Source: Eledone cirrhosa
Taxonomy: Eukaryota
Direction: 5' to 3'
Assembly: GCA_964016885.1 (NCBI GenBank)
Contig: CAXHJY010000244.1
Location: 1-64,000 of the forward strand
Length of the DNA: 64,000 nt
Position 1 is the first letter of the stretch, and every line of letters starts with the position of its first letter. Made by a program: the position numbers and the translations under genes. The notes under the pieces are model-generated. The model ran no database searches, had not been told where the DNA came from, and saw nothing but the letters and a program-made list of their open reading frames with translations. This document shows positions 5,142-49,187 of this stretch, one piece after another.

Positions 5142-5157
5142 TACTTCTATTATTATT

Positions 5158-5330
5158 AGCAGTATTGGTAGAGGGTCGGGACGCCATGCTTTCGGCAGAG
5201 TTACGGCCCTTTAACGTCCGAGTTCAAATCTCACCGAGGTTAACTTTGCCTTTCATCCTTACGGGGTCGATAAATAAAGTACCAGTAATACACTGGGATA
5301 ATTGCTGGCCTTGTGCCAAAATTAGAAATA
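5158..5330 (+). mobile_element. tRNA-derived SINE family A copy
   Basis: A-box-like ggcagtatcggtag in the family, B-box gagttcaaatc, conserved body tttgcctttcatccttacggggtcgataa, (ATT)n tail; about 13 copies in the window. Confidence 0.88.
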
Positions 5331-5807
5331 ATTATTATTATTATAATTATTATTATTCTCATTCTTCATTTTCTTCCTCTTCTTCTTTGCCTTATTCTTC
5401 TTCATCTTCTCTTCTTCTTCATCTCCTCCTCCACCATCATCATCATCATTCTTCTCCTCCTTCTCCATCATCATCAACTTCAGCTTCTTCTCCATCTTCA
5501 TCTCTCTCTCTCCATCTTTTCCTCCTCTTCTTCCTCTAACAATTTCCTCTTCTCCTCCCGCTCCAACTATTTCCGTTTCCGCTTCGTTTACAATAGAAAA
5601 CAAAAAGCTTCATAAAGACAAATCAATAACCAATACTGCAACACAATCATTGATATCGATACTGGAAGTGAACCACAGAATAAGAAGTGTTTTTAATTGA
5701 AGAAAATTACTTAAAATATTTTAACCATAAATATTTATAAATAAATTTAAACAAATAAATTGCATTAGAACCATGCAAGGTTATTTCTTTTTCTAATGCA
5801 GATATGT

Positions 5808-6182: not shown

Positions 6183-6233
6183 TTCCTGATGACTTCTAAA
6201 GAATGAAACAGTTCTAGTCCTGTAGAATCTCAT
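6177..6233 (+). ncRNA. Type I hammerhead ribozyme motif
   Basis: atgagattc-CTGATGA-cttc taaa gaat-GAA-acag ttctagtc ctgt-A-gaatctcat: perfect 9-bp stem I, 4-bp stem III, GUA site; C.U mismatch at the base of stem II. Confidence 0.78.
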
Positions 6234-6328
6234 CAATATTAAAACTTTATACTCTGCTATGTATTGAGTACCTTACTTAATGTGGTTACCTCCGATTCAA
6301 CCCGGAATAACGTATATATATATATATG

Positions 6329-6475: not shown

Positions 6476-6638
6476 AGTAAATTCTAGAGAAAAAAGCCGT
6501 TCTCTTCGAGAACATCCCCTCCTTTCCCGTTCTTTTTCTTCTTTCTCTCTGTCTTTTTTCTCTATATCTCCCTATTTTTTCTTTCTTTTGTTTCCCTTTT
6601 TTTTATTATTGCCGTCATTATAATTCTAATTATTATTA

Positions 6639-6830
6639 GGGCGGTGGATTGGCAGTATCGGTAGAGCGTCGGACGCCATGCTTTACAGCATATAATTACG
6701 GCCCTTTACGGTCTGAGTTCAAATCCCGCCGAGGTTAACTTTGCCTTTCATCATTACGCGGGTCGATAAAATAAAGTACCAGTAATACACTGAGATAATT
6801 GCTGGCCTTGTGCCAAAAGTAGAAAAAATT
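6639..6830 (+). mobile_element. tRNA-derived SINE family A copy
   Basis: Full A/B box head and conserved body. Confidence 0.9.
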
Positions 6831-7067
6831 ATATGAGTAGAAAGATATTTATCAATTCTATGGCTTTTTTTTATATAACTGATTTGGTTATAATGTTATG
6901 AGATAAATTATTTAGTTCAAAACAAGAGATGTAATTACCTAATCTATCCTTTCAACAATTATATTTAATTAGGTATTATACGCGAAGAGGAAAATATTAA
7001 CTATTTGTGTAGCAATTATTATAAGGAAAATTTATGTATTATAGCATAGTTTATCAATATATATTAA

Positions 7068-7248
7068 ATTGGCAGTATCGGTAGAGAGTCGGACACCATG
7101 CTTTGAAGAATAGAGTTACGTCTCTTTATGATCTGAGTTCAAATCCCGCCGAGGTTAACTTTGCCTTTCATCCTTACGGGGTCGATAAAATAAAGTACCA
7201 GTAATGTATTGGATATTTGCTGGCCTTGTGCCAAAAATAGAAACAATT
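7068..7248 (+). mobile_element. tRNA-derived SINE family A copy
   Basis: Same head and body motifs. Confidence 0.9.
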
Positions 7249-7802
7249 AAATTAAATTTATTTATATACTAACTAAAGATAAGGTAGATGAAAAAGTTAT
7301 ATTAGTTTACTGATTTTGTCTATTCGTCTTAATTTTCTATGTAAACAAAAGATCGCTCCATAATTAAATAAAGAAGCTTTTCTTATTTAATTATTTATTA
7401 AGTTTAACTAAAAACTCTATGAAACGTTTTGGAAAATCTACGAAGACAAGAGCTAAATATTTCTGAACGTTTATTAATAATTAAATGTCTATTATAAATG
7501 ATATGAAGAATTTCTGTGGTACATAGGTCACAATCTTTAGATATGGAAGCATTTTGATAAGGCAAAGCATTAGAGAGTTTTTGCCAAGAAAAGGACTATT
7601 CGATATTATTATTTTTAAGTGATCAAATCTATTCAGCAAGGGCCGTAGTAAATCTTTTGCCTGCCCTCTTGAACGAATGGCGATGGTTGTACCATATATA
7701 TATATATATATATATATAATTATATACGAATCAAATGCAGAGTTAAAAACCCGAATTAAAACCCAGTAATTTATGATCTCAAAGTATAAAAACCGGGCTC
7801 TT

Positions 7803-8670: not shown

Positions 8671-8856
8671 GGTGGATTGGCAGTATCGGTAGAGGGTCAG
8701 ACACCATGCTTTCCAGCATAGTTACGTCCCTTAACGATCTGAGTTCAAATCCCGCCGAGGTTAATTTTGCCTTTCATCATTACGAGGTCGATAAAATAAA
8801 GTACTAGTAATGTACTGGGTAATTGCTGGCCTTGTGCCAAAAAGTAGAAACAATTA
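8671..8856 (+). mobile_element. tRNA-derived SINE family A copy
   Basis: Same head and body motifs. Confidence 0.9.
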
Positions 8857-8989
8857 TATTATATATATATACGTGCACATATATAAATTTATGATACCCT
8901 TCTTTTTCTTCCGCCTCTTCTTTGTCCACTTATTTCTGTGGGGGAGGGGTCATGAATGCGGTGTCCTCAGAAATGTCTTCTCGGGGGTT

Positions 8990-20890: not shown

Positions 20891-21062
20891 ATTTATACTT
20901 CGATGAGTCCAGCCTTGTGTTTTGATGAAACGATCGTTAGAATTAAATGTTCTTAAACACTCTTTGATTGTTATTTATTAAGTATTTCGGCTCTGTATTT
21001 ACTTGTTATTTTACATTGAGCTATTCTCACAATTGTAATTGGATAATATCTAATATTGCCCG

Positions 21063-21143
<81 letters not shown>

Positions 21144-21207
21144 GCGGGTAATATTAGATATTATCCAATTACAAGTGTGAGAATAGCTCAATGTAAAATA
21201 ACAAGTT
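20891..21207. mobile_element. Two tail-to-tail element ends facing one (TA)n run, with a decayed hammerhead
   Basis: 21000-21066 inverted against 21141-21207 around (TA)n; tcgatga-gtc..gat-GAA-ACGATCGT-T at 20900-20938; homologous to the 5854 element. Confidence 0.7.
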
Positions 21208-22171
21208 TATTATCCTATTAAAATAACAAGTTATTATCCTATTAAATAAGCGACAAGAATTAATTATATCTTGCAATCATAGAATTAGAAGAACTTTCAA
21301 ATATTATAAACCAAATTAATATACACCTTACACTTATATTTTACATATTATTATAATTAATTTTTTTTATTTAGTTAACCTATAATTAGTACTTTACTAC
21401 AGAGAACTAAAAGTATACATATAAATTAATTTAATTTCCTGTTATAAATCTAGATTCCTTGTAGTCTATATAAGATTGGTATTTCTCACTACTACATTTA
21501 TCCCAAAATTTTATTTTCCTTCGTTTTTAACAACATTCTTTAATAACATCTAATTCTTATTTATCACATCCATATGAATTAATATAAATTTATCCCTATA
21601 AGTATACCTATCAATTAATTTAATTTCTTGTTATAGATCTAAATTCCTTGTGTTTTAAATAAGATTGGTATTTCTCACTAACACCTTTACCCTAAAATGT
21701 TATTCTCCTTCGGTTTTAACATTAACATTATTCTTTAATAGCATCAAATTTTCGTGTACCTTTCACCGGCTTGACCTCTTTTCATCCCCAAAGTATTATT
21801 TTCATTCAAAGTATTCTTTCCATTCAAAACTTAAGTCTGCATTCCTCTACCCCTAAATTAAATTTCTACTACTATTATTCTATCAACTTGACCTCTTACT
21901 ACTTTTCTATTGGTCAATTCAAAACCTGTTCCTAAACAGACCTATCATATGAAATCTTTGTTGGGTTTTTTCAATAAACAAATATCATTATTTCTGAAGA
22001 CAGCATATATATGTGAAGGTATGTATATTTCCTCTGATAGTTTCTAAAATGTTTATATAGATCTATATGATATACATACCAACACACATATATATCCTAG
22101 AAACGATCGTAAAATGTTGAATTGTTTAATATAAGGAACTTGTTCTTTGTTTTTATTCATTGTTTTTATTA

Positions 22172-22212
<41 letters not shown>

Positions 22213-22221
22213 AACAGACAG

Positions 22222-22257
<36 letters not shown>

Positions 22258-22474
22258 CCAAGTTTGCATGATTATTCATATATCCAGTAATCTTACTTTA
22301 TATGTCTTAACCATTTTGGACACCAAACATTTTAAACGTTAAGCGCTGTGCCCTTCATTATTGACTGCACAGTTCCACTAGTAATATATGTATGTCTATA
22401 TATATATATAAAAGAAATAGGATTTCGCTTCAAGCATAGCTTTATACAATATGTATTTCTTTGGAGATACGAAA

Positions 22475-22514
<40 letters not shown>

Positions 22515-22519
<5 letters not shown>

Positions 22520-23276
22520 ATATGTTGAGAAGGCAACACACCAGAGAGAGATATATAGTGTGTTATCAATAATACAGGAAAAAAAACCACCAGTGTATGG
22601 AATCTATAACCTATGAAAGGCAGACTATAGACACGATAATTAAAAATATAAATTAAAGCGTAAATAAATACCTCTATAACTATATAACACACGTACAAAT
22701 CCAAAGATATGTTTCACCAAAAAATTTGTTGAAAGAAATGGTCTAGTCTCGGTTCATCAGCGTGTGTAAGGCCATACATTTCAGACAACACTAAGAGAAT
22801 TTTACAATTGACTGTCCAGCTACACGTGGGAGAGAGAAGTCACAGCGTGTTTAAGGGCAGTGAACCAGTGGCCTCTGAGAGACGAACTGCTAGAAAGGGC
22901 AGTCCAAAGCCACTCAGAGAAGTGTGCTCAACCAAACAGAGATAGGAAAGACTGTTATTAGGAGCGAAATATCACGATAAATTAACGGAGGCATAGGCCG
23001 TCGTTATTCCCTGTAAATAATGTGCTCAAAGGGGAAGAGATCCTGAGCCCTTTAAAATATAATATGTTGAGAAGGCAACACACCAGAGAGAGATATATAG
23101 GTTAAAGATTCCATACACTGGTGGTTTTTTTCCCTGTATTATTGATAACACACTATATATCTCTCTCTGGTGTGTTGCCTTCTCAACATATTATATTTTA
23201 AAGGGCTCAGGATCTCTTCCCCTTTCAGCACATTATTTACAGGGAATAACGACGGCCTATGCCTCCGTTAATTTAT

Positions 23277-23283
<7 letters not shown>
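22515..23283 (-). mobile_element. Hammerhead-bearing unit with 542-nt periodicity plus an inverted copy of its end
   Basis: 22515-22558 is repeated at 23057-23100; 23101-23283 is an inverted copy spanning the junction; (TA)n on both sides. Confidence 0.82.
22687..22767 (-). ncRNA. Type I hammerhead ribozyme motif
   Basis: ACACACG-CTGATGA-accgaga..ttttggt-GAA-acatatc tttg gatttgt-A-CGTGTGT: perfect 7-bp stem I, GUA site. Confidence 0.82.
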
Positions 23284-23322
<39 letters not shown>

Positions 23323-23424
23323 CTGGTTACACAACAGTTAGTTCACCATACCGAGAACAATTGTTTCATCTTAGCGGATCCCCAGCTCGTAATGGACATG
23401 GTTATACGGAACAGGAAGGACAAT

Positions 23425-23473
23425 GCTTCCTGATGACTTCTCCCGAATGAAACAGTTCTAGTCCTGTAGAAGC
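23425..23473 (+). ncRNA. Type I hammerhead, same family as 6177 (host element about 23320-23563)
   Basis: gcttc-CTGATGA-cttc tccc gaat-GAA-acag ttctagtc ctgt-A-gaagc; compensatory stem I change relative to the 6177 copy. Confidence 0.78.
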
Positions 23474-23577
23474 CTTTCTATATTAAATATTTTATTTATA
23501 CTCTGCTTTGTATTGAGTACTTTACTTACTTGGTTAGCCCCGATTGAACCTGGGATAAACTTGTATATATATATATA

Positions 23578-24170
23578 TGGTGGCTGCCAACTAGTTTTCG
23601 AGTACGGCCACTACTTTATATCCATGTAGGAGAACCCCTACCGATGCGCTGAACGAGTGTGACTTTTTAGTCCAGCCAGCGACTTGAAAACTCTGGTACA
23701 AACACTACACTTGTGACAATTATTGACACATAGTGCTGGGCCCATGGTACCATGTGACGACAAGTGCAGAGAGATCTCCAGATATAAAGCAATGCCTGTG
23801 CCGTGAAGCTTTTATAGTGAGCAAAGGCACTGCACAAAGCCAGTCCCACTCTCTTCACCAAGATGATATTTACCAAAAAGAAGAACAAGTCAACATCATT
23901 GGATACCATCAGGGTTGCAGGTGTTATATCAGAGTTTTCCTTCTCCTAGACAAAGGCTAAGGGGTCATCTCTCCCGGTGATTTTGGATGGCCATTGACTC
24001 TGAAGAGCTCCTTTGCCCTTTGACAGGTTTTGTTTTTAGTCCTGCAGGATGTCCAAAGTCACCCTCCTCACCAAGAAAACTTGGTGGGGTTGCCAGTTTA
24101 GTCGCCAACGACCCGACCATGGGACAGGTTGTACTGGGATACATGTTACCAGTAACACCAACTGGTGACC
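23578..24170 (-). mobile_element. About 590-bp interspersed repeat, possibly RTE-dependent and non-autonomous; inverted copy at 47754-48346
   Basis: Highly similar reverse-complement copies; ends at (TA)n/(TGTA)n; related fragments at 48410-48475 and 48615-48676. Confidence 0.8.
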
Positions 24171-24251
24171 TGACATACATATATATTTTTATATATATAT
24201 ACATGTGTGTGTATATATATATGTGTGTATATATATATATGTGCATGTGTG

Positions 24252-25935: not shown

Positions 25936-26468
25936 AATAGAGTTATGGCCCTTTACGTTCTGAGTTCAAATCCCACCGAGGTTAACTTTGCCTTTCATTC
26001 TTGCGGGGTCGATAAAATAAAGTACCAGTAATAGACTGGGGTATTTGCTGGCCTTGTGCCTAAAGTAGGAACAATTATTATAATCTAATCGAAACATTTG
26101 TCACCATCAAAGTAACTAATCATAATAATAATAGTTTCTACGTTAGGCACAAGGCCAACAAATACCCCAGTACATTACTGGTACTTTATTTTACCGACCC
26201 CGTAAGGATGAAAGGCAAAGTTAACCTCGGCGGGATTTGTACTCAGAACGTAAAGGGCCATAACTCTATGCTAATAGTAATAATTGTTTCTACTTTTGGC
26301 ACAAGGACAGAAATTACCCCAGTACATAACTGGTACTTTATTTTATCGACCCCGTAAGGATGAAAGGCAAAGTTAACCTTGGCGGGATTTGAACTCAGAA
26401 TGGCAAGGGCCGTAACTCTATGCGTCAAAGCATGGCGTCCGACCCTCTACCGATACTGCCAATCCACC
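25936..26468. mobile_element. Cluster of three SINE family A copies (+ 25936-26080; - 26133-26270; - 26281-26468)
   Basis: Conserved body in both orientations, tail-to-tail. Confidence 0.87.
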
Positions 26469-29355: not shown

Positions 29356-29892
29356 CTATAGAGTACGTTTGTAAATATGGGATTTCTTGTAATGTTCTTT
29401 TTTTTATATTTAATGTTTGTTTTTTTACGTAAAATAAAATTATTATTAGATTCTCCAGTTGTTATATCAATATGAATCACTTACAATAAAATTTCGCAGG
29501 AGATAGATTAGCAAAATTTAATAAGGAGCGGGGGTGGTTGGAATAAAAGCAGGGGTATGTGGGGGGAAAATCTGAAAGGTTAATAAGAAGGGGTGGAAAG
29601 GTATTGGTTCGATTATTCAAGACATGAGAGTACCTGATTTTGTTTAATTTTTGTTCCCTTACAATCTTTAATAAGCAGGGATGGGAATATAGGCCGGGGT
29701 GAGTGGAAAAAAATTAAAAAAATTAATAAGTGTTGGGTGGGGAATCTGAATAATTAATAAGCGAGGAGTAGGGACGATTATTCAAGTCCTGGGAGTACTT
29801 AAAATTAGAGAAAACACTTAGGGGGAGTTAATTTTGATACTAATGTTATGTAAATGAAATAAAGTATTAATTAAGACTTGGTTATATAGTTC

Positions 29893-30065
29893 AGTATCAG
29901 TAGAGGGTCGGACGCCATGCTTTCCAGCATAGTTACGTCCCTTTACGATCTGAGTTCAAATCCCGCCGAGGTTGACTTTGCCTTTCATCCTTACGGGGTC
30001 GATAAAATAAAGTACCAGTAATGCACTGGGTAATTGCTGGCCTTGTGCCAAAAGTAGAAACAATT
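29893..30065 (+). mobile_element. tRNA-derived SINE family A copy
   Basis: Same motifs. Confidence 0.9.
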
Positions 30066-30080
30066 AATTTCTCTATTTTC

Positions 30081-30259: not shown

Positions 30260-30325
30260 ATTTTATTATACATATTTCAGAGGTACGTGAATCAGGTTCA
30301 GCAGTACGTCCTCATCAGATAAAAT
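30260..30325 (-). ncRNA. Type I hammerhead ribozyme motif (host element about 30112-30502)
   Basis: attttat-CTGATGA-ggacgtac..gtacctct-GAA-atatgtat-A-ataaaat: perfect 7-bp stem I, AUA site. Confidence 0.75.
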
Positions 30326-30392
30326 AGAATGATACATGACATACCCTGAGATGTTAGATGGTTAAGATTTAATCAAGGTAGTGATTAATGTA

Positions 30393-30502
30393 TGAGAAAA
30401 TTCAACATTTATACCCGAATAGTGAGAACATGGGAAAACGAGAAAATTCTATTACGTTTTCCCATGTTCTCACTATTAGGGTATAAATGTTGAGTTTTCT
30501 CA
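30393..30502. repeat. About 110-bp fold-back at the 5' end of the hammerhead element
   Basis: tgagaaaattcaacatttatacccgaatagtgagaacatgggaaaacg and its near-perfect reverse complement, 14-nt loop. Confidence 0.88.
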
Positions 30503-30587
30503 AAATCGCATTAGTGATTTGATTATGTGCCTGCTTTATACACATGTATATTCAACCTACTTATCTGTTTTAATAATGGCTTAGAAA

Positions 30588-31001
30588 ATTGGCAGTATTG
30601 GTAGAGGGTCGGACGCTATGCTTTGCAGCATAGAGTTACGGCCCTTTACGGTCTGAGTTCAAATCCCGTCGTGGTTAACTTTGCATTTCATCGTTACGGG
30701 GTCGATAAAATAAAGTACCAGTAATGTACTGGGGTCGATTTAATCGACTTTCCCCACCTACAAAATTGCTGGCCTTGTGCGTATGCAAGAAATTATTATT
30801 ATCATTATTTGGTGGTGGATTGGCAGTATCGGTAGAGGGTCGGACGCCATGCTTTGCAGCAAAGAGTTACGGCCCTTTATGGTCTGAGTTCAATTCCTGC
30901 CGTGGTCAACTTTGCCTTTCATACTTACGGGGTCGATAAAATAAAGTACCAGTAATACACTGGGATAATTGCTGGCCTTGTGCCAAAAGTAGAAACAATT
31001 A
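30588..31001 (+). mobile_element. Two tandem SINE family A copies; the first has a longer internal segment
   Basis: Heads at about 30588 and 30811. Confidence 0.88.
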
Positions 31002-31159
31002 TTTATCTATCTGCCTACCTGTCCATCGGTTGTGGGTATGAAAATACACTCTTGTGTGTGAATACGGAAGAGCCGAACTCCCACTGTCATCGCCTCCATC
31101 TCTCTCGTCCTCCCCATCATTCTGTGTGCTGAGCAAATGGGGTCACACGTGCTGGTCTC

Positions 31160-32690: not shown

Positions 32691-32915
32691 TCTATACAAA
32701 CAACATCACAGAATAATTGTTAGCAAATCTATGCGTGGACAAACAATGTAGCCACCTAGCGGTGAATGCCGGTGCATTAATGGTGGTTTGATCACGTGAT
32801 AGACATCCGGGCTCCAGACGTGATCCGAAGCCCTCGGGGGCGGTGGGAGGCCATCGAGGATGGGTCAAAGTCCTTATATCCAGACAAATTTAACTCTTTA
32901 GCATTTAAACCCCTG

Positions 32916-35900
32916 ATGACCATAGTATCAAAGCTGTGGTCTCTCAATTCGGAGATTCTTTCCTGAGACATTAACCACATGACCATAGTATCAGAGCTGT
33001 GGTCTCTCAATTCGGAGATTCTTTCCTGAGACATTCTATCCACATGACCATAGGTATCAGAGCTGTGATCTCTCAATCCAGAGATTCTTTCCTGAGACAT
33101 TCTAAACACATGACCATAGTATCAGAACAGTGATATCTCAATCCAGAGGTTCTTTCCTGAGACATTCTAACCACATGACCATAGTATCAGAGCTGTGATC
33201 TCTCAATCCAGAGATTCTTTCCTGAGACATTCTAACCACATGACCATAGGTATCAGAGCTGTGATCTCTCAATCCAGAGATTCTTTCCTGAGACATTCTA
33301 AACACATGACCATAGTATCAGAACAGTGATCTCTCAATCCAGAGATTCTTTCCTGAGACATTCTATCCACATGACCATAGTATCAGAGCTGTGATCTCTC
33401 AATCCAGAGATTCTTTCCTGAGACATTCTAAACACATGACCATAGTATCAGAGCTGTGGTCTCTCAATTCGGAGATTCTTTCCTGAGACATTCTAAACAC
33501 ATGACCATAGTATCAGAGCTGTGATCTCTCAATTCGGAGATTCTTTCCTGAGACATTCTATCCACATGACCATAGTATCAGAGCTGTGATCTCTCAATCC
33601 AGAGATTCTTTCCTGAGACATTCTAACCACATGACCATAGGTATCAGAGCTGTGATCTCTCAATCCAGAGATTCTTTCCTGAGACATTCTAACCACATGA
33701 CCATAGTATCAGAACAGTGATCTCTCAATCCAGAGATTCTTTATTGAGACATTCTAACCACATGACCATAGTATCAGAACAGTGATCTCTCAATCCAGAG
33801 ATTCTTACCTGAGACATTCTAACCACATGACCATAGTATCAGAGCTGTGATCTCTCAATCCAGAGATTCTTTCCTGAGACATTCTAACCACATGACCATA
33901 GGTATCAGAGCTGTGATCTCTCAATCCAGAGATTCTTTCCTGAGACATTCTAACCACATGACCATAGTATCAGAACAGTGATCTCTCAATCCAGAGATTC
34001 TTTATTGAGACATTCTAAACACATGACCATAGTATCAGAACAGTGATCTCTCAATCCAGAGATTCTTTCTTGAGACATTCTAACCGCATGACCATAGTAT
34101 CAGAGCTGTGATCTCTCAATCCAGAGATTCTTTCCTGAGACATTCTAACCACATGACCATAGTATCAGAGCTGTGGTCTCTCAATTCGGAGATTCTTTCC
34201 TGAGACATTCTTACCACATGACCATAGTATCAGAACAGTGATCTCTCAATCCAGAGATTCTTTCTTGAGACATTCTAACCACATGACCATAGAATCAGAA
34301 CAGTGATCTCTCAATCCAGAGATTCTTTCCTGAGACATTCTAACCACATGACCATAGTATCAGAGCTGTGATCTCTTAATCCAGAGATTCTTTCCTGAGA
34401 CATTCTAACCACATGACCATAGTATCAGAACAGTGATCTCTCAATCCAGAGATTCTTTCTTGAGACATTCTAAACACATGACCATAGTATCAGAACAGTG
34501 ATCTCTCAATCCAGAGATTCTTTCTTGAGACATTCTAAACACATGACCATAGTATCAGAACAGTGATCTCTCAATCCAGAGATTCTTTCCTGAGACATCT
34601 AACCACATGACCATAGTATCAGAACAGTGATCTCTCAATCCAGAGATTCTTTCTTGAGACATTCTAAACACATGACCATAGTGTCAGAACAGTGATCTCT
34701 CAATCCAGAGATTCTTTCTTGAGACATTCTAAACACATGACCATAGTATCAGAACAGTGATCTCTCAATCCAGAGATTCTTTCCTGAGACATCTAACCAC
34801 ATGACCATAGTATCAGAACTGTGATCTCTCAATCCAGAGATACTTTCTTGAGACATTCTAACCACATGACCATAGTATCAGAACAGTGATCGCCCAATCC
34901 AGAGATTCTTTCTTGAGACATTCTAACCACATGACCATAGTATCAGAACAGTGATCTCTCAATCCAGAGATTCTTTCTTGAGACATTCTAACCACATGAC
35001 CATAGTATCAGAACAGTGATCGCCCAATCCAGAGATTCTTTCTTGAGACATTCTAACCACATAACCATAGTATCAGAACAGTGATCTCCCACCCAGAGAT
35101 ACTTTCTTGAGACATTCTAACCACATGACCATAGTATCAGAACAGTGATCTCTCAATCCAGAGATTCTTTCTTGAGACATTCTAACCACATGACCATAGT
35201 ATCAGAACAGTGATCTCTCAATCCAGAGATTCTTTCCTGAGACATTCTAACCACATGACCATAGTATCAGAACAGTGATCTCTCAATCCAGAGATTCTTT
35301 CTTGAGACATTCTAAACACATGACCATAGTATCAGAACAGTGATCTCTCAATCCAGAGATTCTTTCTTGAGACATTCTAACCGCATGACCATAGTATCAG
35401 AGCTGTGATCTCTCAATCCAGAGATTCTTTCCTGAGACATTCTAACCATATGACCATAGTATCAGAGCTGTGATCTCTCAATCCAGAGATTCTTTCTTGA
35501 GACATTCTAACCGCATGACCATAGTATCAGAGCTGTGATCTCTCAATCCAGAGATTCTTTCCTGAGACATTCTAACCATATGACCATAGTATCAGAGCTG
35601 TGATCTCTCAATCCAGAGATTCTTTCTTGAGACATTCTAACCGCATGACCATAGTATCAGAGCTGTGATATCTCAATCCAGAGATTCTTTCCTGAGACAT
35701 TCTAACCACATGACCATAGTATCAGAACTGTGATCTCTCAATCCAGAGATACTTCCCTGAGACATTCTAACCACATGACCATAGTATCAGAGCTGTGATC
35801 TCTCAATCCAGATATTCTTTCCTGAGACATTCTAACCACATGACCATAGTATCAGAACAGTGATCTCTCAATCCAGAGATTCTTTCTTGAGACATTCTAA

Positions 35901-36428
35901 ACACATGACCATAGTATCAGAACAGTGATCTCTCAATCCAGAGATTCTTTCCTGAGACATTTTACCGACATGACCATAGTATCAGAGCTGTGATCTCTCA
36001 ATCCAGAGATTCTTTCTTGAGACATTCTAACCACATGACCATAGTATCAGAACAGTGATCTCTCAATCCAGGGATTCTTTCTTGAGACATTCTAACCACA
36101 TGACCATAGTATTAGAGCTTTGATCTCTCAATCCAGAGATTCTTTCCTGAGACATTCTAACCACAGGACCATAGTATCAGAACAGTGATTTCTCAATCCA
36201 GAGATTCTTTCTTCAGACATTCTACCCACATGACCATAGTATCAGAACAGTGATCTTTCAATCCAGAGATTCTTTCCTGAGACATTCTAACCACAGGACC
36301 ATAGTATCAGAACAGTGATTTCTCAATCCAGAGATTCTTTCTTCAGACATTCTAACCACAGGACCATAGTATCAGAGCTGTGATCTCTCAATCCAGAGAT
36401 TCTTTCCTGAGACGTTTTAACCACATGA
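32916..36428 (-). repeat. 65-bp minisatellite, about 54 copies, derived from an RTE LINE ORF segment
   Basis: Unit reverse complement translates LWIERSQL*YYGHVVRMSQER; nucleotide match to the RTE fragment at 9130-9162. Confidence 0.9.
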
Positions 36429-36704
36429 TCAGTTTCAATGAGAGATCTCCATTCAGAACTGTTGCAAGTTGTGTCACGATCCATCCATGCCCTCACCACG
36501 GGACAGCCCCTCCCCCCTCTCCTCTGGGGGTGTCAGGTGTTCCTCGACAGATTTGAGATTCTTATCTATTCTGATAACAATAACAAAGAAATCTTTTCCA
36601 ATCGACGCGAGGAATATAAATATAAAAACGAAATATGGTTTCAAAAATAGCGTCCTGGTGTGTCTGTGTATGTGTCTGTGTGTATATATGTGTGTGTCTG
36701 TGTG

Positions 36705-47344: not shown

Positions 47345-47572
47345 AAGATAATTTGCTTGATAAGTAAGCCACAGTCGACAGATTGGTGTGATAAATAGAC
47401 TGTTAGATAGATAATGTATGTGTATATGTATGTATGTAGATAGATAGATAATGTATATATGTATGTATGTATATATAATGTATGTATGTATATATTATGT
47501 ATGTAAGTATAAAGTATGTATGTATATATGTATGTATGTATAATGTATGTATGTATATATGTATGTATGTAT

Positions 47573-47749
47573 AATTGTTTCTACGTTAGGCACAAGGCCA
47601 GCAATTACCCAGTGCATTACTAGTACTTTATTCTATCGACCCCGTAAGGATGAAAGGCAAAGTCAACCTCGGCGGGATTTGAACTCAGATCGTAAAGGGA
47701 CGTAACTATGCTGGAAAGCATGGCGTCCGACCCTCTACCGATACTGCCA
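47573..47749 (-). mobile_element. tRNA-derived SINE family A copy
   Basis: Reverse complement of the consensus. Confidence 0.9.
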
Positions 47750-47753
47750 AAAT

Positions 47754-48346
47754 GGTCACCAGTTGGTGCTACTGGTTACATGTATCCCAGTACAACCTGT
47801 CTAATGGTCGGGTCGTTGGCGACTAAACTGGCAACCCCACCAAGGTTTCTTGGTGAGGAGGGTGACTTTGCACATCTTGCAGGACTAAAAACAAAACCTG
47901 TCAAAGGGAAAAGGAGCTCTTGAGAGTCAATGGCCATCCAAAAGCACCGGGAGAGATGACCCCTTAGCCTTTGTCTAGGAGAAGGAAAACTCTGATATAA
48001 CACCTGCAACCCTGATGGTATCCAATGATGTTGACTTGTTCTTCTTTTTGGTAAATATCATCTTGGTGAAGAGAGTGGGACTGGCTTTGTGCAGTGCCTT
48101 TGCTCACTATAAAAGCTTCACGGCGCAGGCATTGCTTTATATCTGGAGATCTCTCTGCACTTGTCATCACATGATACCATGGGCCCAGCACTATGTGTCA
48201 ATAATTGTCACAAGTGTAGTGTTTGTACCAGAGTTTTCAAGACGCTGGCTGGACTAAAAAATCACACTCGTTCAGCGCATCGGTAGGGGTTCTCCTACAT
48301 GGATATAAAGTAGTGGCTGTACTCGAAAACGAGTTGACAGCCACCA
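47754..48346 (+). mobile_element. Second copy of the 590-bp repeat at 23578-24170
   Basis: Highly similar reverse complement. Confidence 0.8.
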
Positions 48347-48777
48347 TGTATGTATGTACGTATGTATGATATCGACCAGTTCTCCCTTTCGAGTAGTGTT
48401 TTCGATGCCCAGAGAGTGGGATTAGTCGAGTGCAAGGCCTTTCTCCACTTAAAAAACCTTCAAAGCACTGGCAATGTTTGTTCAGGATCTGTTACAGGTT
48501 CGTGTGACTGGCCGTAGCCTAAAAGTACACCAAACTCTATAATCTGACAAACAATTGCAATCCTCTTAGCAGAGTTTGCAGCCATCATGTACTTATGTAA
48601 ATGCATTGGATGTTCAGAGAGTGGGATTGGCTCCGTGCAAAGCCTTTACTCACTTAAACAAGCTTCAAGCACAGGCACCGCTTGACATGTGACATTTTTT
48701 GCGAACACCCTAACCACAAAGCCACGCGTCTTCACAGTACCTAAGATACACATTCAGTTCCATACCTATTATTAGTG

Positions 48778-48960
48778 GGCAGATTGGCAGTATCGGTAGA
48801 AGGTCGGACGCCATGCTTTGTAGCATAGAGTTATGGCCCTTTATAGTTTGAGTTCAAATGCCACCGAGGTCAACTTTGCCTTTCATCCTTACGGGGTCGA
48901 TAAAATAAAGTAGCAGTAATACCTGGGTAATTGCTGGTCTTGTGCCAAAAGTAGAAACAT
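48778..48960 (+). mobile_element. tRNA-derived SINE family A copy
   Basis: Same motifs. Confidence 0.9.
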
Positions 48961-49187
48961 TTGTTGTTGTTGTTGTTGTTATTTCCTCGTCGTCCACATC
49001 ACTATAACCACCACCGCCCATCATCATCACCCACATCACCACCACTACCACCATCATCACAACCACCTCCACCACCAATACTTAGACGAGCAAATTTTAA
49101 ATTTGTTTCTTTATTTTATTCCAGTCTCAAGACAAATCGATGTTCTTCGGGAAAGAAAGAGAAGAGAGAAAGAAACCAACGACAATA

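Follow-up and report, generated by a model that had tools for sequence, protein, structure and literature searches.

Non-LTR retrozymes of animals and endonuclease-bearing Penelope-like elements (PLEs) are the described systems that come closest to the locus analyzed here. The mobilization of retrozymes by Penelope-like enzymes has so far been inferred from co-occurrence and phylogeny. According to the available text of a July 2026 preprint, in which solo monomers are counted, animal retrozymes derive from the pLTRs of PLEs and are non-autonomous PLE derivatives (bioRxiv 10.64898/2026.07.22.740005). With regard to the insertion machinery itself, the PLE protein of the green anole is described as cleaving and extending both strands of AT-rich DNA, with nicks in both; it starts internally at two sites, is predicted to form a dimer, and inserts from uncut RNA in vitro, hammerhead mutants being inserted normally (PMC11167929). 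For head-to-head inversions, Arkhipova et al. describe a different route, namely self-priming on an antisense template (PMC3846280).

Here we describe a hammerhead unit with the full footprint of a PLE insertion in a contig of Eledone cirrhosa (CAXHJY010000244.1); the window, that is, the whole stretch of DNA that was analyzed, comprises 64,000 nucleotides. The locus is likely a single insertion, in a (TA)n tract, of a non-coding multi-copy unit of 542 nt, carried out by the enzyme of an autonomous PLE acting in trans.

Organization of the insert

The insert comprises about 770 non-coding bases within a TA microsatellite and consists of more than one turn of the 542-base unit and a short arm placed back to back with it. 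The long arm (22515..23100, minus strand) is 586 nt long, or 1.08 turns, and is organized as a 44-nt repeat, 498 nt and the 44-nt repeat again, with its 3' end at 22515. The 3' copy of this terminal redundancy (22515..22558, minus strand) has TATAT at its end, which matches the (TA)n target, and the 5' copy (23057..23100, minus strand) is identical to it. As the original prediction had it, the minus-strand unit running from 23100 to 22515 carries one and the same 44-nt sequence at its two ends (identity 44/44), and, among periods of 400-585 in this arm, 542 alone exceeds an 80% match. The short inverted arm (23101..23284, plus strand; 184 nt) is made up of the last 52 nt of the unit, the 44-nt repeat and the next 88 nt, and so crosses the unit junction. 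Its agreement with an in silico head-to-tail dimer at 181 of 184 positions (the differences are at 23105, 23132 and 23226) bears out the claim that the inverted copy reads through the repeat junction. Given that the arms differ at only these three positions, the insertion is either young or derived from two close templates.

The arms are joined head to head over a shared microhomology of 4 nt, ATAG (23097..23100), and are flanked by a left (TA)n target tract (22479..22514) and a right (AT)n target tract (23285..23319), the short arm ending at 23284 (plus strand) with an ATAT that runs into the latter. When the RNA strand is set by the hammerhead motif described below, the 3' ends of both arms face outward into these tracts. 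Each of these ends has 4-5 nt in common with the target (TATAT at unit position 40-44, ATAT at 129-132), and the two are offset by 88 nt; sites of this ATAT type number about 10 per 542-nt unit. The unit has a GC content of 38.6% and is present in a single copy within the window. The combination of a partial tandem with an adjacent inverted, 5'-truncated copy is a feature of PLE-type insertions, and the presence of (TA)n on both flanks, as well as at the end of a contig from another sample (X4 contig 8, see below), agrees with the target preference of PLEs; inside the microsatellite a TSD is unreadable. The proposed Penelope-style inversion is thus supported by the adjacent inverted arm, the (TA)n target and the head-to-head microhomology joint.

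Could such a layout be an assembly artefact, or have arisen at the DNA level if fold-back or template switching at the microsatellite had rearranged a satellite-like tandem unit? The 132-nt arms with their 52-nt spacer form a hairpin, and complex PLE structures are described as troublesome for assemblies (PMC8557442). Nevertheless, we regard such an origin as highly improbable, given that the 52-nt spacer consists of unit sequence oriented like the short arm and not like the long arm, that the arms are not identical, that other samples contain comparable head-to-head joints with different breakpoints, and that both 3' ends lie on target microhomologies.

The hammerhead motif

The long arm contains a type I hammerhead motif (22687..22767, minus strand) with a predicted cut after 22694. 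Stem I (22767-22761 paired with 22693-22687) consists of 7 Watson-Crick pairs, and the core of CUGAUGA (22760-22754), GAAA (22715-22712) and GUA (22696-22694), all on the minus strand. In the predicted fold, stem II has 7 bp, including two G.U pairs, and a 24-nt loop, whereas the long stem III is built of 5 pairs around one U.U mismatch and a 4-nt loop. The complete hammerhead with a 7-bp stem I and GUA was thus found as claimed, and a motif with a stem I of at least 7 pairs was obtained in 0 of 3000 dinucleotide shuffles of the long arm. Across the window, seven motifs with a stem I of at least 5 pairs were observed, compared to 0 in each of 40 block shuffles.

The Rfam hammerhead models gave no matches at the gathering level in the window or at E<=10 within 21500-24200, probably due to the 24-nt loop II. 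The 25 Rfam matches that were obtained at E<=10 within 21500-24200 are miRNA-type hairpins and noise, the best ones being caused by the inverted arms; the interpretation of the locus as a miRNA hairpin was rejected because the pairing arises from the geometry of the insertion. The 121-nt hammerhead region folds no better than shuffled sequences (z +0.89), and the active fold accounts for approximately 1.5% of the predicted local ensemble (-14.3 kcal/mol for the active fold, -15.3 kcal/mol for the best one). Given that this share is similar to that predicted for the six other hammerhead motifs of the window (0-3% of the ensemble), folding does not decide activity.

Among 40 of the 68 rows of variants between contigs, the substitutions and indels in the hammerhead fall in the stem II region (22716-22750), and none of them affects the core or stem I. 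Two further variants come from loose ends of contigs (rows 22741 and 22707); one of these alters only the free N7 position of the core, and the other changes the U.U of stem III to G.U. Judging by the sequences, this pattern would fit selection on the motif within the family.

Two additional features were noticed in this part of the unit. A decayed second copy of the 5' half of the hammerhead (22841-22859, minus strand) precedes the real one by about 87 nt; it consists of the stem I strand and a core short of one A, and has its own 5-bp partner strand (a self-match). Furthermore, a motif scan yielded, as a lead, a possible GT-AG intron of 86 nt (22611..22696, minus strand) that would begin at the hammerhead cut site and end with a pyrimidine-rich AG. 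This candidate 3' splice-like AG coincides exactly with the start of the short arm, which may be due to chance; a 75-bp intron in the 5'-UTR is described for the pLTR of Penelope.

Other hammerheads and repeats in the window

The six additional type I hammerhead motifs represent at least 4 other families and are located at 6186 (plus strand), 8542 (minus), 21994 (plus), 23430 (plus), 30318 (minus) and 61435 (minus). Five of the six are followed 38-154 nt downstream by a TA tract, a position that truncated PLE ends would be expected to show, and two are located on either side of the studied insert, no more than 600 nt away. The sequences at 6183-6310 and 23427-23558 belong to one hammerhead family (82%). 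The motif at 21994-22111 (plus strand) combines a CUGAAGA core with a 99-nt stem II region that includes a 24-bp inner hairpin and with a palindromic stem III; a 189-nt direct repeat (21407-21721) is located upstream of it. Just upstream of the motif at 30318 (minus strand), a 71-nt inverted repeat with a 14-nt spacer (30370-30525) is likely to be another head-to-head two-armed insertion.

The remaining repeats are of several kinds. A 592-nt repeat is present in two mutually inverted copies that are 97% identical (23579-24170 and 47754-48345), the first of them between TA tracts, and contains one frame that weakly matches a C2H2 zinc finger (E 6e-05, which is below the cut-off). A perfect palindrome at 21001-21206, with 103-nt arms at 97%, is centered on a long (TA)n tract. 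A SINE-like repeat of about 180 nt is abundant (5155-5336, 6622-6832, 7068-7252, 8671-8858, 26279-26468, 29892-30066, 30791-31003, 47570-47750 and 48768-48965) and presumably resembles octopus SINEs. A 65-nt minisatellite occupies 32895-36450.

Other copies of the family

A search of public runs listed 17, of which 13 contain part of the stretch; four of these (X1, X4, X5 and X6) were analyzed as assembled contigs, so that the evidence on junctions and ends from other copies refers to contigs. None of the 17 runs is recorded as RNA, a blank that carries no information about expression. Contigs of the family number 1944 for X1 and 130 for X5 (both with organism label A), 5 for X4 (label B) and 4 for X6 (label C), the X1 and X5 counts being counts of variant contigs for which depth is not copy number; contig depth was rejected both as a measure of copy number and as a guide to where RNAs end. 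The 542-nt hammerhead unit is a multi-copy family. Among the listed pieces, those at 22582-22996 and 22969-23095 (X4), 22774-22978 (X5) and 22842-23075 (X6) are collinear with the unit; the listed pieces overlap collinearly across 22515-23095, with no single contig covering the whole stretch.

Seven joints were listed, comprising three between opposite strands, three skips and one that goes back 542. The opposite-strand joints are at 22675/22793 (4 shared letters), 22707/23026 and 22823/22947, and the first two are head to head by contig coordinates. The joint that goes back 542 belongs to X4 contig 8, an assembly-graph path rather than a single read, which crosses the unit junction, its short side measuring 88 nt, and terminates in ATATATAT at 22969, where (TA)n begins at the same base as at the 3' end of the short arm. 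Given that, at the equivalents of 22561, 22606 and 23027, this contig carries alleles unlike those of the short arm, it is likely an independent copy; its identification as an orthologue of the short arm was rejected because the alleles differ and an adjoining contig continues unbroken. Both window arms and X4 contig 8 cross the junction and accordingly display head-to-tail organization. At the position equivalent to 22561, both window arms have T, as opposed to C in 99.6% of the X1 depth and in the other three runs; the T shared by the arms suggests one source template, and the species of the window may be absent from the runs.

Among 16 of the 146 loose ends, most are diverged versions of the unit itself, and four resemble 5' truncations (22657, 23031, 23044 and the ambiguous 23093). 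At the X5 loose end at 22672, which is 3' of the hammerhead and 22 nt past the cut site, two contigs enter 109 nt of unrelated sequence that could represent a longer relative. X5 contig 18 skips 201 nt including the hammerhead (a weak joint, with a side of 26) and is a possible hammerhead-less derivative. The candidate 5' ends (12 in total: 2 in the window, 6 from joints and 4 loose ends) scatter around the unit, with 0 of the 12 at the predicted cut site 22693, whereas 2 of the 3 known 3' ends fall on the same base (22969-equivalent), so the ends are not simply random. The random permutation of start points that had been anticipated therefore holds for the 5' ends but not for the 3' ends.

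A copy with two hammerheads was seen neither at the locus, which has one motif, nor in the contigs, which are too short to exclude arrays. A 21-nt family pattern had 0 matches in metagenome_contigs and 0 in viral_contigs. The 19-nt hammerhead pattern matched 14 metagenome loci, none of which (0/14) has the rest of the hammerhead or further homology, and these are thus chance matches.

Coding content and the origin of the short unit

The longest stop-free frame inside the element is about 70 codons. No PLE domain was detected above the Pfam cut-off in the 9 frames of the element, and neither RT nor GIY-YIG in 15 short frames in and near it; the ORF with a telomerase-like RT and a GIY-YIG endonuclease that characterizes autonomous PLEs was not found. 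A longer autonomous relative of the 542-nt unit is expected, none being present in the 15 frames scanned.

When a PLE is autonomous, its inverted arm has an overhang that enters the start of the ORF, and a second occurrence of this overhang would lie no nearer than one full element length upstream. The insert could conceivably have been such an element, with two direct pLTRs and an inverted pLTR with a tail, that later lost its ORF, or else a solo pLTR. The layout is that of full PLE copies, the loose end at 22672 leads into unrelated sequence, and internal deletions mediated by microhomology are described for rotifer Penelope copies (PMC3846280). Nevertheless, the element contains no coding remnant, and a solo pLTR has no means of carrying its 3' overhang a second time 542 nt upstream. 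The solo pseudo-LTR that the original prediction had kept as its alternative is disfavored on two counts: the long arm contains the 88-nt overhang again at exactly this distance, so that an ORF would have no space, and collinearity across the unit is also seen in other copies. Given that contigs of three organism labels contain the short unit without interruption, any deletion of an ORF predates the spread of the family. Taken together with the recurrence of the overhang after 542 nt, this continuity indicates that the short form itself is the mobile family, and descent of this particular copy from a full autonomous PLE or a solo pLTR appears improbable.

Mechanism of insertion and the nature of the template

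Insertion by a PLE enzyme in trans, which is the reading that we favor, would probably make the unit a non-LTR retrozyme, in other words a non-autonomous derivative of a PLE. The simplest account of the insert is that both strands of the (TA)n tract were nicked and served for target-primed reverse transcription, and that the two cDNAs were then joined at a microhomology. A copy containing more than one unit would be transcribed, and the template would be either the uncut linear RNA or a circle produced by hammerhead cutting and ligation. By analogy with the anole PLE, nicks would be introduced in both strands of the (TA)n tract, and each 3' end would prime inside the RNA at a short ATAT match, at positions 44 and 132, where the ends of the arms are observed. 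The cDNAs seen at the locus, one of 586 nt that passes through the hammerhead cut site and one of 184 nt, both extend across the unit junction, and their head-to-head joint at the 4-nt microhomology would reflect repair. The action of the anole enzyme on two strands, its two internal starts and its predicted dimer would all fit this mechanism. The fit would be less good with respect to priming, given that the anole priming sites are described as having no target homology, unlike the ATAT overlaps of the insert, and the tail is 30-40 nt, compared to 88 nt here (PMC11167929). The antisense self-priming of Arkhipova et al. could generate head-to-head arms in place of priming from two strands; we prefer the latter.

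The original prediction held that the cDNA was copied slightly more than once around a circular or tandem RNA, and took the layout as a signature of circular RNA. The cDNA does exceed one unit length, but the layout does not qualify as such a signature because an uncut linear RNA of 638-674 nt (about 1.2 units, with one hammerhead) is enough to template both arms; the 542-nt period is proof of head-to-tail continuity, not of circularity. Given that the long arm passes the cut site and exceeds one unit, the template was either uncut or re-ligated, and, with one hammerhead in the window copy, no unit-length RNA would be released by cutting alone. Under PLE insertion in trans, we lean towards a linear uncut or tandem template, with a circle as the somewhat less probable option.

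Considered in its own right, a covalently closed 542-nt RNA circle that would be formed by hammerhead cleavage and ligation and copied for more than one round is a tentative proposition. It would account for the extension of the long arm beyond one unit through the cut site, for the crossing of the junction by both arms and for the scattered 5' ends of other copies. Folded as a circle, the unit is predicted to reach -126.4 kcal/mol, somewhat better than 60 shuffled sequences (-110.6 +/- 6.3; z -2.5), and the pairing of stem I in this fold is 0.65-0.79; both values are consistent with a circle, and so is the long stem III, which is said to permit monomeric cutting in invertebrate retrozymes (PMC7761336); circles are described as demonstrated for the retrozymes of coral, mussel and axolotl (PMC7229834). 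Apart from the sufficiency of the linear RNA, a circle is opposed by the failure to see a two-hammerhead copy at the locus or in the short contigs, by the lack of candidate 5' ends at the cut site, and by the Xenopus retrozyme dimers, 8 of 9 of which remained uncut in vitro (bioRxiv 10.64898/2026.07.22.740005). By analogy, the dispensability of the anole hammerhead, mutants of which insert normally (PMC11167929), would also count against it.

The most specific version of this idea, in which the unit exists as an RNA circle of 542 nt on which a dimeric Penelope enzyme would prime the two nicked target strands at two preferred ATAT sites 88 nt apart, is unlikely in our estimation. If true, it would make the locus a physical footprint of rolling-circle, twin-primed PLE integration and would tie the circles of animal retrozymes directly to the PLE machinery, one template explaining both the inverted arm and the tail. 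Whatever the template, a hammerhead unit with the full footprint of a PLE insertion provides a clean test case, and a young, high-copy family with mappable 3' and 5' ends would allow one to ask directly whether PLE enzymes copy circles or uncut tandems.

Comparison with known systems

Plant LTR retrozymes contain a type III hammerhead in LTRs of about 350 bp and possess a PBS, a PPT and a 4-bp TSD; assignment of the insert to this group was rejected in view of its type I topology, 44-nt redundancy and TA target. Membership in the non-LTR retrozymes is, on sequence features, probable, not proven. With the metazoan non-LTR retrozymes, as these are described in the available texts, the family shares a non-coding unit of a few hundred nucleotides, a GC content below 50% and multiple copies (PMC7229834; bioRxiv 10.64898/2026.07.22.740005), along with one type I hammerhead per unit, head-to-tail continuity and the absence of an evident LTR, PBS or PPT. 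The length of 542 nt exceeds the 150-450 nt given by Cervera and de la Pena 2020 (PMC7229834) and falls within the 51-972 bp units of Li, Clavereau and Pollet 2026 (bioRxiv 10.64898/2026.07.22.740005). The hammerhead of the insert differs from those of non-LTR retrozymes in its 24-nt loop II and long stem III, and, with 1.08 units and an inverted arm, the insert fails the preprint's activity rule of two units with hammerheads and counts as a monomer (bioRxiv 10.64898/2026.07.22.740005). Elements of this kind are already known; the 542-nt sequence family is apparently undescribed, no description having been found in the literature searched. Neither was a description of head-to-head arms for retrozymes found in the available texts.

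With the insertions of endonuclease-bearing PLEs, as far as the available descriptions go, the insert shares two direct repeats, an adjacent inverted 5'-truncated copy and a (TA)n target (PMC3846280, PMC8557442), an extension on one arm and microhomology at the 5' joint (PMC3846280, PMC8557442, PMC11167929), and a hammerhead located a short way upstream of the 3' end. Unlike these elements, the insert lacks an ORF, its 3' ends are offset by 88 nt and not 30-40, and these ends share short homology with the target. Its hammerhead is of neither the minimal type nor the type with a palindromic stem III that are described as typical of metazoan PLEs (PMC4209133). The non-autonomous Chlamys elements, such as MRC1, are likewise short non-coding PLE derivatives with pLTRs and head-to-tail insertions but, unlike the insert, they are green-algal and mostly without canonical hammerheads (PMC8557442).
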